A stretch of 64,000 bases of DNA from a virus. The stretch lies in IMG/VR virus record IMGVR_UViG_3300026233_000021. The stretch is one strand, 5' to 3'. Position numbers: made by a program. Every line of letters begins with the position of its first letter. The first letter of the stretch is position 1. Positions 48,001 to 51,000 of the stretch are shown here, in pieces.

Positions 48001-51000
48001 AAGGGCATGGTGAAGGTGTCAGCCTCTTCCCCATCCTTGGAATCGCCCTTGACCATGATCTTGTACAGGCAGCCGGAGAACAGGCGCCATTCGGGATCAC
48101 GCAAGCACCGCTCCAGCTCCTCGGGCGTGTCGGGGAGCCGGTTCAGGGGAGCACTGTGGACGCGCGCGGCCACAGCCTCAATCCTCCTCGTCCGCCGGGT
48201 CTTGCTTCACCTGCAGCGTGGAGCCCGCGCGGGGGCCTGTGCGCTCCGGGTCATCTGCAATGGGCGCGAAGCCGTTGCCGTTCTCCTTGGAGATGCGATG
48301 CAGCAGCGCGGCCAGCGGGTCTGACTTCTGCTGGTTGTCCCTCTCGTACATGCCCAGGTACTTCCAGATTTTTTCTGCGAAGGCCTCCTTGCTGTGCGTC
48401 AGGACCTGCAGGCCATCTTTCGTACGCTTCACGCCGGCATACAACTGGGCAGCGGCTGGGCTCAGGTAGCGGGTGTCCTTGATGACCTCGCGTGCATATC
48501 CATCCCCAACGCATGCAGTGCAGTCCGGGTGCGGCGGCCGGTGGGGGTTGAAACCGATGCCGCCTTCTTCATCGAAATCCTCGGGCGCCTTGCCTTCAGC
48601 ACGCCATGACTCGCGTGCCTGGTTCATCTCGCTGACGGTGCGCTGGTAGCGGAAGTTCTCCCCCCAGCAATGGCGGCAGCATGCGACCTTGGTCTCGATC
48701 AGTTCGCGTGCATCGGCTGTAGCGATCAGCCAAGCCTGCTGCAGCATGGCGTCGGCAGTGATCTGCGTGCGCTCCTGCTGCTGCTTTCGGGCTTCCGCAA
48801 TCGCGACTTGGATGTGAGGTTTTGACAGGTTCTCAGAGGCGATCTGCCGGGCAGTCTTGGAGCTGTAGCCGGCTCGAATCGCCGCCTGGGTTCCATTCAG
48901 GTCCACCAGGAATTCATCGATGAACTTCGACTCCCTCGCGGTCAGCGCCTGGGCATCCGTGCTCTTGATGCGGGCGGCCTTTTTTGCCGGGGCCTTCTTC
49001 AATGCGGGTTTCGCGGTCGCGCTCGTAGGCTTCTTGGCCGCTGGGCGCTTCGCAGGAACGGCAGAGCCTGCGGCCTTCTTGGGGGCAGCAGGCTTCTTGG
49101 GGAGAGGTTTCTTTGGAGGCTCGGACTTGCCGGCAGGACGTTGGGCCATGGCCGGAAGTGTTCCGGCATGGCCTAGGGCCGTCGAACCCTAGCCGGGGCG
49201 CTCCGCGCGACGCGCCACATTGCGCAACAGTTGCGCATAGAATTCCGGCATGACAGCCAAACCACCCACCGCCCACACGGCCGAAGAAATCACGGAATGG
49301 ATGCAGCGCAATGGCCTCACGCAGACCGCTGCAGCCGAGGCCCTGGGTATCTCACGCCGCATGCTGCTGTACTACCTGACCGGCGAGAAGCCCGTGCCCC
49401 GCACCGTGGCCCTGGCCTGCCTGGGCTGGGAAGTGGAGCGCACAAACGCGGCTTGAGTGGCTTCTGAAAAAAGGCGTTGACTGCGCAATCATTGCGCATT
49501 ATTATTCTTCCCATGGCAGCAACAAGCGGCCACTGGCCCGGCAGATCCGGGAAGTCTCGGCCGCACAGGTCGAACGCACCAAAGGGGAAAAACCATGTCC
49601 TACCTCATCAGCAACGGCCAGATCGTCGCCAAGACCTCCGCCACCCTGGCCAGCGGCCAAAGCGTTGCATTCAGCGGCACCCGCGTGGCCGAGGAAATCA
49701 ATGCCGGGCGCCAGTGGAACCTGGTCAACGCGCAACGCGCCACCATCGGCAACGGCAAGACCTGGGATGCAAAGTGGGCCAAGCTGGAAGATGGCCGCAT
49801 GGCCAGCGAGATCAACCCCGGCGAATTCTTCATTGCCTGACTGCTATAGTGGTGCCGTCCAGATAGGCGCCGACTGCCGAGCAGGCAGCTTAGGAAATAC
49901 CGCAGTGATGGTGCTCCATCAGCGGGCTCCGCTCTCTCCACTACCGAACAGGTAGCTTCTCTGCCGCATAGGCAGCACCACCGGAGATTGATGATGCAAA
50001 CCGAAGACCGGGAATTTGATGCCGAGGTGCGCGCCTTCGTTGCCTCGTTCGGCTGCGTGCAGCGCGCCCGCTATGGCCGCTGGTTGGCCTGGCTGGACCC
50101 AACGCACGACTTTGTGCGCGAGGGCCTGCAGCCGCCTGGGCAGGTCAACGTCTACCTGCACGGCGAACCCAAATGCACCGCCCAAAACAGCTACTGGGAC
50201 GGCCAACCGCCCATAGGCTTTGCACGGGGCAAGCCCCTCTTTGGCGGGCCGCTGGACTTGCGGAAATCCGCCGACCGGGAGCTATGGCGCCAGGCGTGGG
50301 CCGCGCGCCCGTATTTCGAGAGCGCGGAATCGGCGCGCCGCAAGATCGAAGACTGGATCTGGGACAACCGCCCCGACATCGTGCGTACGGCAAGGAATGA
50401 GGTGCGCGAGGCGATTGCCTACCGCCGCCGCATGAGCTGGAAAGCCCGGGAGCCGGCCCATGCCTGAGTGGCGCATCTACCAGGGAAACACCCTGTATTG
50501 CCAAACCGATTGGGCGCCCATGGCCGTGGCGGCCTGGGACCGGGCCGCCCGCGACACCAACACCGAGGATGAGCGCACCGAGGTGGTATTGGAGAGGGAC
50601 GGCCAGCTGCTGGAGCGTGTACGGCCGCGCCGTGCAGGACACCCTTGGCCCGACAGTCGCACCACAGTGCCAGGGCTGGGGGACCTGGCGGCGGCCATCC
50701 TGCAACTGGCACGCGCTGCAGGCATCGACGCCACCGCGCTGGCCGATGAGATGACACGCAACGGCCTACCCACCGCACGCAGCCGCCTGGACCGCATCCG
50801 CACCATCTCGCGCGACAACAGCGCGCATACATCAAGCGCCGAGCTGATGGCCATGTGCTATGCAGCCGTGGGAATTTTGCGCAAAAACGAAAAAGGGGGT
50901 TGACTGCGCAATGATTGCGCAATAGTATTGAACCCATGGCAGCACACCGCCGCCAGCGGCGCCTCCCGTCAATGAGGGGCAAGTGAGAACCACAATGAGC

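Follow-up and report, generated by a model that had tools for sequence, protein, structure and literature searches.

The RNA anti-CRISPRs (Racrs) RacrIF1-3 are viral solitary repeat units (SRUs); RacrIF1 is bound and processed by Cas6f with specificity for C6-G20 and the stem-loop, and a non-targeting CRISPR RNA (crRNA) also inhibits (Camara-Wilpert et al. 2023, Nature; PMC10651486). The same study includes a working acrIC5-racrIC1 operon from a Bifidobacterium prophage (PMC10651486, Fig. 3d-f). Multi-unit type I-F Cracr arrays, tightly linked to acrIF24, have been described by Liu et al. (bioRxiv 10.1101/2024.10.29.618823), for whom a Cracr is defined by at least 9 bases proximal to the protospacer-adjacent motif (PAM) shared with host CreA/R; the pseudo-spacer (PsiS) of viral I-F Cracrs is mostly 17-21 nt long. 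Here we analyze an element in IMG/VR virus record IMGVR_UViG_3300026233_000021, where a 64,000-nucleotide stretch (the window), with prophage DNA of Comamonas/Delftia-type bacteria, carries three Cas6f-type hairpins between an acrIF8 homologue and the next open reading frame (ORF). On balance we read the element as a phage-encoded array of type I-F repeat-mimic RNA, of the Racr/Cracr class, within the AcrIF8 operon mRNA. By analogy with the known systems, the hairpins most likely soak up host Cas6f and other Cas proteins.

What is new about the element is its layout; the underlying RNA anti-CRISPR strategy was described between 2023 and 2026, and the principle is not new. In the initial annotation it was called a candidate RNA anti-CRISPR, and this is still the best fit. 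The hairpins mimic I-F repeats, run in the sense orientation of an anti-CRISPR (acr) operon and are kept under selection in related loci. The accompanying claim that joint protein and RNA inhibition from one transcript was undescribed has to be withdrawn, as acrIC5-racrIC1 (PMC10651486) and the AcrIF24-Cracr arrays (bioRxiv 10.1101/2024.10.29.618823) are precedents. New are the AcrIF8 partnership, the hybrid layout, a handle-less hairpin 7 nt before a ribosome-binding site (RBS) and a predicted RBS-masking helix breakable by Cas6f. The accessible parts of the Cracr preprint main text and of the Racr supplements mention neither AcrIF8, Delftia, Comamonas nor the IMG/VR records concerned.

Three repeat-like hairpins behind acrIF8

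The element and the gene preceding it are made up as follows.

49595-49840, + strand: acrIF8 homologue, 81 aa (Pfam PF25699, E 7e-16; PDB 6VQW AcrF8, E 1e-13)
49869-49896, + strand: repeat-like unit 1, consisting of hairpin 1 and the 5'-handle-like CUUAGGAA at 49889-49896; 22/28 to the I-F repeat
49874-49888, + strand: hairpin 1, CTGCC-GAGCA-GGCAG; predicted Cas6f cut after 49888
49897-49935, + strand: 39-nt pseudo-spacer, with inner hairpin CCGC-AG-UGAUGG-UGCU-CCAUCA-GCGG at 49900-49925
49936-49955, + strand: repeat-like unit 2, 5' flank CUCCA and hairpin 2 (49941-49955), CUACC-GAACA-GGUAG; predicted cut after 49955
49956-49975, + strand: repeat-like unit 3, CUUCU and hairpin 3 (49961-49975), CUGCC-GCAUA-GGCAG; no 5' handle behind it; predicted cut after 49975

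The Pfam and PDB matches bear out the initial naming of the upstream gene as acrIF8. Behind it, in a gap given as 150 nt, that annotation had placed three hairpins, each with a 5-bp stem and a 5-nt loop, and sequence reading finds all three on the + strand, in a gap that is in fact 153 nt long (49841-49993). The third pair of hairpin 2 is A-U, not G-C. The motif CTRCC-N5-GGYAG has exactly three matches in the window, namely hairpins 1-3, versus 0.72 expected from shuffles. All three lie inside 102 nt, and we estimate the chance of such clustering at about 1e-7 to 1e-6. A pattern scan of the window found no I-F repeats besides these hairpins.

The likeness to I-F repeats is divided between the units. 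The ungapped 28-mer 49869-49896 matches GTTCACTGCCGTACAGGCAGCTTAGAAA at 22/28, the value first annotated. Against the Rfam family of I-F repeats, CRISPR-DR4, hairpin 1 with its 3' flank scores 26 bits (E 0.014) and hairpin 3 scores 19 bits. Hairpin 3 with its 5' flank (CTTCT-CTGCC-GCATA-GGCAG) agrees at 19/20 positions with the 5' 20 nt of host-family I-F repeats, the first base being the one that differs; the repeats compared with it begin GTTCACTGCCGCATAGGCAG and GTTCTCTGCCGTGTAGGCAG and include loops GCATA and GTGTA. Directly 3' of hairpin 3, where a handle would stand, the sequence reads CACCACCG and is none. With hairpin 1 the case is reversed, a poor 5' flank going with a good handle, CTTAGGAA, in which position 6 is changed from A to G. 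The handle of the validated RacrIF1, CCAAGGAA, as given in primer Prs220, carries the same A-to-G change at position 6. So does the handle of a solitary near-perfect I-F repeat, GTTCACTGCCGAACAGGCAGCTTAGGAA, in an unrelated IMG/VR contig (L093:3276-3304). As judged from these three sequences, the change may be a recurrent mark of viral I-F repeat mimics.

Cuts after each stem would yield a 67-nt product (49889-49955), the length first proposed. It is better read as an 8-nt handle CUUAGGAA and a 39-nt pseudo-spacer than as the 9 nt and 38 nt of the initial annotation, whose count of 32+6 nt with one extra Cas7f step is accordingly weak. The minimum free energy (MFE) fold contains all three hairpins, an extra hairpin in the 39 nt between the first two, and pairing of UCUCC (49935-49939) with GGAGA. 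The extra hairpin includes the TGATGG/CCATCA self-pairing noted earlier and is lengthened by CCGC/GCGG. The folding energy of the whole region is ordinary (z = -1.4), and the signal therefore lies in the specific hairpins. No promoter-like or terminator-like site turned up when the stretch from acrIF8 to the next ORF was scanned, which places the hairpins on the operon mRNA in the sense orientation.

Two other readings of the segment were rejected. A repeat-like integration (att) site does not agree with the position of the element in the middle of an operon. A 15-aa mini-ORF (49908-49955) in the pseudo-spacer is not considered coding, as the substitutions in the related locus L099 are, in our reading, all non-synonymous.

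With RacrIF1-3 the element shares a prophage I-F repeat mimic with a Cas6f-type hairpin and C6-G20, the proximity to acr genes, and the expected capture of Cas6f with non-productive Cas7f assembly. It differs in having three units rather than one, of which one is crRNA-like and one handle-less, and in lying between two cistrons with no promoter of its own. Its unit is only 22/28 identical to the repeat, and SRU screens based on identity would probably miss it. The acrIC5-racrIC1 operon is alike in that one transcript carries an acr gene and, directly downstream of it, a repeat-mimic RNA. That system, however, belongs to type I-C and its transcript ends in the one unit it has, whereas the window element is type I-F and has several units and more genes behind it.

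Conservation of the hairpins in related operons

The same three hairpins are found in four IMG/VR proviruses, in several metagenome contigs and in the related locus L172. Among five aligned, near-identical provirus copies, 17 of the 153 intergenic columns vary. None of the variable columns falls in the 30 Cas6f-stem positions (P 0.019), and with the inner hairpin added, which brings the stem positions to 50, there is still none (P 7.5e-4). Positions 2-3 of the loops vary freely among relatives. At 85% AcrIF8 identity, L098 and L099 have four hairpins (L098:1160-1341 and L099:616-800). All 40 compared stem positions are the same as in the window, against 55% identity at third codon positions of the adjacent ORF.

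These counts bear on whether the element is a decaying remnant of a captured CRISPR or crRNA-like RNA (crlRNA) mini-array that is now without function. Such decay would account for the degenerate flanks, the non-canonical handle, the orphan spacer and the loss of a unit relative to L099. Yet there are 0 substitutions in the 50 stem positions as against 17 variable columns elsewhere, the stems are 40/40 identical where neighboring synonymous sites are 55% identical, and hairpins last down to 44% AcrIF8 identity. We give decay the slimmest chance of the readings weighed here.

More distant operons carry fewer hairpins. L173 and L174 (72% AcrIF8 identity) have two, one of them I-F-like, with a G.U at the third pair, and homologous to hairpin 2, which is present in every three- and four-hairpin relative. 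L121-123 (64%) have a single I-F hairpin, 11 nt before the Shine-Dalgarno (SD) sequence of the homologous downstream gene. In L128 and L175 (44%) the genes abut, and one I-F hairpin lies in the 5' untranslated region of acrIF8, 7 nt before the acrIF8 SD. Positional homologues of hairpin 3 occur in L099, L121 and L128; the spacing from hairpin to SD is 7 nt in the window, L099 and L128 and 11 nt in L121. No I-F hairpin was found at five other sampled AcrIF8 loci. The initial annotation had made its reading depend on conservation in related loci, and hairpins are kept at 85, 72, 64 and 44% AcrIF8 identity (four, two, one and one, respectively). On this comparison of sequences, the I-F-type hairpin is a persistent yet movable companion of the operon of acrIF8 and the 157-aa ORF. 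L173 also carries, in one operon (L173:538-1510), homologues of both AcrIC5 (PF22147) and AcrIF8.

AcrIF8-based and doublet-pattern scans of species-representative genomes found nothing, and the extra doublet-pattern matches L087 and L092 both lack a second hairpin. A scan of IMG/VR for a hairpin, 7 nt and GGAG gave only two matches, both inside apparent coding regions.

The distant relatives also raise the question of whether the hairpins are RNA structures independent of Cas proteins (stabilizers of mRNA, RNase sites, or sites for a helix-turn-helix regulator like the anti-CRISPR-associated (Aca) proteins), their I-F likeness being ancestral or incidental. At the hairpin 3 site of L173 stands CCCCGCC-GCACG-GGCGGGG, a 7-bp GC stem in which a compensatory change from U-A to C-G has removed the I-F likeness and which has no CRISPR-repeat match in Rfam; in L173 the structure alone may matter. 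L121, L128 and L173 each have GC hairpins upstream of their I-F hairpins. In the acrIF8-aca2 operon of ZF40, moreover, Aca2 binds RNA hairpins and controls AcrIF8 translation, as cited in a preprint (bioRxiv 10.64898/2026.07.27.740549). The ZF40 mechanism differs, however, and leaves the identity to I-F repeats unexplained. The C-G and U-A pairs, the GNNNA loop, the GTTCN-like flank and the CUUAGGAA handle are kept even though flanks cannot be aligned; the hairpins are unlike the operator TGCGCAA-N3-TTGCGCA; and the unit of one relative copies a host crlRNA gene. A role independent of Cas proteins is accordingly judged very unlikely.

Type I-F systems of the host group and the pseudo-spacer

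The locus adjoins terS/terL of the prophage, and the large terminase is 97-98% identical to those of prophages of Delftia acidovorans and of a Comamonas metagenome-assembled genome (MAG). Of the 77 species that GTDB assigns to the host genus, 19 have type I-F Cas6f, and across the family it occurs in 25 of 301 genomes sampled. Genome G003, with a prophage terL 98% identical to that of the window, has Cas6f; no Cas6f was found in three related provirus records. Repeats of the host group read GTTC(A/G/T)CTGCCG(CATA/CACA/CGTA/TGTA)GGCAGCT(C/T)AGAAA. A spacer from an I-F array in a host-genus species (L131, G342) matches window positions 12076-12107 on the - strand at 28/32, inside an ORF (11760-12422) assigned to phrog_1599, with PAM CA rather than CC. 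I-F immunity of the genus can thus reach such phages, and by this match prophage relatives have already been sampled by I-F adaptation. The host of the window itself may carry an I-F system, as judged at the level of the genus.

The four-hairpin relative L099 links the element to host RNA genes. Its extra unit consists of CTGCC-GCAAA-GGCAG, the mutated handle CTCATCGA and a 28-nt spacer before the next hairpin. That spacer begins AGTCAGCTCTTCAG, and its first 14 nt are identical to the spacer of a host mini-array in L144 (14/14 PAM-proximal), where both flanking hairpins are also alike. The mini-array (L144:3882-3950, in region 3799-3950) lies in the cas2/3-cas8f gap of the I-F locus of a Comamonas-genus genome, G307. 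A predicted partial, CC-flanked target with 10 paired PAM-proximal positions lies 80 nt away, directly downstream of a promoter-like site reading toward cas8f. Because of this nearby partial target at a cas8f promoter-like site, the L144 RNA looks, in sequence, like a CreA/CreR-type self-regulatory or toxin-guarding crRNA. Comamonadaceae I-F loci commonly carry a mini-array in the cas2/3-cas8f gap (also L109, L115, L116, L118, L157, L103, L150 and L155), in which a degenerate repeat (in many cases with a GNRA tetraloop) is followed by a handle, about 22-33 nt of spacer and a repeat 5' half.

By the shared bases required by Liu et al., unit 1 of L099 is, at the level of sequence, a Cracr, and the L098/L099 array is a clear Cracr candidate with AcrIF8 rather than AcrIF24 as its partner. 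The array of the window is the L099 array minus the unit that copies a crlRNA gene. Since the extra unit of this relative copies a host crlRNA gene, we group the window element with the viral crRNA-mimic arrays (Racr/Cracr). Host CreA/CreR crRNA-like RNAs are its likely evolutionary source: the mini-arrays between cas2/3 and cas8f share the hairpins and, for L099 unit 1, the spacer. They differ in being chromosomal, beside cas genes and close to a partial target, none of which applies to the window element.

Like the Cracr arrays, the window element is phage-borne, stacked, I-F Acr-linked and probably derived from host crlRNA, and its hairpin 1 with handle, 39-nt PsiS and hairpin 2 follow the PsiR-PsiS-PsiR layout. 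Unlike them, it has AcrIF8 rather than AcrIF24 as partner, a PsiS that is 39 nt long, structured, variable in the seed and for which no target was found, and an additional terminal hairpin that is free of spacer and handle. It also departs from a canonical mini-array of full 28-nt repeats and 32-nt spacers matching mobile elements: the repeats are degenerate or partial, the spacer is 39 nt and no protospacer was found in IMG/VR or in representative genomes.

The pseudo-spacer was compared with host cas loci and phages, as the initial annotation had advised, and no convincing target emerged. Across 43 I-F loci of the host family or genus, compared at all positions with wobble at every 6th position, the best match was 15/20, at chance level and within cas7f coding sequence. 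Neither these 43 loci nor the window itself contain a PAM-plus-seed match of at least 10 nt. A PAM-plus-seed pattern had 10 matches in 401 family genomes, coding-like by context, one with a motif we read as M20-peptidase-like, and none matches past position 17. A 29-nt wobble pattern matched only relatives of the element itself in a 185,579-species collection and IMG/VR. The canonical handle plus seed, expected of a host crlRNA, gave one chance match in the 185,579-species collection, in a Terriglobales MAG. These searches sampled one genome per species, and strain-specific targets are possible. Fewer than 9 PAM-proximal bases are shared with any host CreA/CreR spacer or cas/creT promoter searched. 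Positions 4, 8, 9, 11 and 18 of the pseudo-spacer vary among near-identical phages, and positions 10-30, the inner hairpin, are the part best kept among relatives. In length the spacers measure 39 nt in the window and 28 and 39 nt in L099.

These properties decide how the 67-nt product is to be read. Were it a guide of the Cracr type, the RNA of hairpin 1, pseudo-spacer and hairpin 2 would steer the Csy complex to a cas or creT promoter and shut down either immunity or a toxin whose release AcrIF8 would otherwise cause. The sister unit in L098/L099 copies a host crlRNA whose predicted target in L144 lies upstream of cas8f, many I-F loci of Comamonadaceae have crlRNA genes, and Acr-linked I-F Cracr arrays have already been described. 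AcrIF8 is also reported to trigger CreTA toxicity (bioRxiv 10.64898/2026.06.02.729485), which supplies a rationale for an RNA partner. For the window pseudo-spacer, however, the I-F loci, family genomes, 185,579 species and IMG/VR yielded no target; variation at seed positions 4, 8, 9 and 11 with the middle best kept is the reverse of what a guide would show; and 39 nt is well above the 17-21 nt typical of viral I-F Cracrs. A guiding role is thus unlikely. Because the seed varies, the inner hairpin is mostly kept, no target was found and the length is 39 nt, we read the 67-nt product as a non-targeting decoy or competitor, in line with how Racrs act.

Predicted processing and the downstream genes

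The further parts of the operon are listed below.

49477-49505, + strand: promoter-like site of the acr operon, of sigma-70-like type, TTGACT-17-TATTAT, 10/12 match, overlapped by palindrome TGCGCAATCATTGCGCA
49935-49939, + strand: anti-SD UCUCC, predicted from MFE and pairing probabilities to pair with the downstream GGAGA in a helix that encloses both Cas6f sites
49983-49986, + strand: SD GGAG of the next gene (start ATG 49994), 7 nt past the predicted third cut
49994-50467, + strand: gene for a 157-aa protein, no assigned family
50460-50903, + strand: gene for a 147-aa protein, no assigned family

What was observed comprises the anatomy and orientation of the element, its co-location with acrIF8, stem conservation, the gain and loss of units, and I-F systems with matching repeats in the genus; from known Cas6f/Csy4 specificity and the RacrIF1 work we infer cleavage and binding. 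In the repeat-mimic array as we envisage it, the operon mRNA would be made early from an Aca-controlled promoter. Host Cas6f would bind each 5-bp/5-nt hairpin, cut after its last G (G20) and stay bound, so that one transcript would hold three Cas6f molecules. The products would be an acrIF8 mRNA whose terminal hairpin is still held by Cas6f, a 67-nt crRNA-like RNA, a 20-nt hairpin, and a downstream mRNA beginning 7 nt before its own SD. The 67-mer, with its variant handle CUUAGGAA, structured 39-nt pseudo-spacer and hairpin 2, would load Cas7f, perhaps also Cas5f/Cas8f, and guide nothing. Its complexes would compete with real crRNAs while AcrIF8 blocked complexes already made, and with no handle behind hairpin 3 the coding RNA would stay free of Cas protein assembly.

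Several points weigh against this interpretation. Cas6f cleavage, binding and inhibition are predictions only, made by analogy, and assembly on the 67-nt product is uncertain, given the handle variant and a pseudo-spacer that is over-long and structured. The window handle is non-canonical, and both CRISPR-DR4 scores are below the Rfam gathering score of 35. The hairpin 3 position of L173 is occupied by a 7-bp GC hairpin that lacks the I-F-typical U-A pair. No Cas6f was found in G002, the closest Delftia genome searched. Contigs from RNA libraries cover the region, and such contigs prove neither transcription nor RNA ends.

These contigs come from four runs, two of which span all hairpins. In the other two the contigs break at 49950 and restart at 49979, and break at 49936 and restart at 49977, respectively; the restarts are 1-3 nt past the third of the predicted cuts. 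Position 49976 has a C/T polymorphism that explains a unitig break equally well, and contigs show no RNA ends, so we count the breaks neither for nor against Cas6f cutting.

The position of hairpin 3 suggests a further role for the cuts, that of a switch gated by Cas6f. Cutting at hairpin 2 or 3 would part the anti-SD UCUCC from the SD GGAGA (49983-49987), and the downstream (anti-defense) genes would be translated efficiently only in cells making I-F Cas6f, which would meanwhile be trapped; cutting may also stabilize both fragments. The SD has an unpaired probability of 0.002-0.12 in the uncut RNA versus 0.48-0.85 once hairpin 2 or 3 is cut. The calculation was made for the window and for all seven three- or four-hairpin relatives tested, with the same outcome in each, and SD masking as strong arises in only 7 of 200 shuffled versions of the upstream segment. 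A handle-less hairpin lies 7-11 nt before an SD in four lineages. Against a switch, the anti-SD/SD helix is a thermodynamic prediction only, is invariant in the clade, with no covariation, and does not occur in L121, L128 or L173, whose SD is predicted to be open; in addition, the short intergenic gaps of phages place any element near an RBS. As an explanation of the element a switch is quite unlikely. That Cas6f cutting tunes downstream expression, as initially suggested, finds some computational support from the modeled folds, in the window lineage only.

A comparable arrangement is known from engineering. Csy4/Cas6f sites were reportedly built into synthetic operons by Qi, Haurwitz, Arkin and Doudna in 2012, and there too a Cas6f hairpin directly upstream of an RBS cuts polycistronic RNA and frees the downstream cistron. 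Those sites are man-made, whereas such use in the window is predicted only. We know of no description of a natural phage using a Cas6f hairpin before an RBS.

This AcrIF8 clade is constantly accompanied by the 157-aa and 147-aa genes. The two genes are 45-46% identical to the L121 genes and show 45-76% identity across L121, L172, L173 and L175. Neither protein had a match among Pfam, PHROG or PDB sequences. An AcrIF4-like identity for the 157-aa ORF is unsupported at the sequence level, as PDB sequences gave no match at E values as high as 1. As conserved genes, the two are good candidates for new anti-defense proteins. The promoter-like site has a second copy at 50900-50928. Both belong to a duplicated 72-nt promoter-operator-leader block (49466-49537 and 50889-50960, 79% identical) that heads two successive operons, and the palindrome TGCGCAAT(C/G)ATTGCGCA overlaps both promoter-like sites. 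A blastn search with the whole locus found no match among phage and plasmid records.

If the RNA acts in the way envisaged here, RNA anti-CRISPRs would extend to the AcrIF8 family and to phages of Comamonadaceae. Repeat mimics could then be far more degenerate (22/28) and composite than screens based on identity find, and such elements are therefore probably undercounted. The series of one, two, three and four hairpins in one conserved operon would offer a natural view of the gain and loss of units, one of which can be traced back to a regulatory crRNA gene of the host. Together with the predicted RBS masking, the hairpin without a handle would make a testable case of a phage using the host CRISPR nuclease on its own message.

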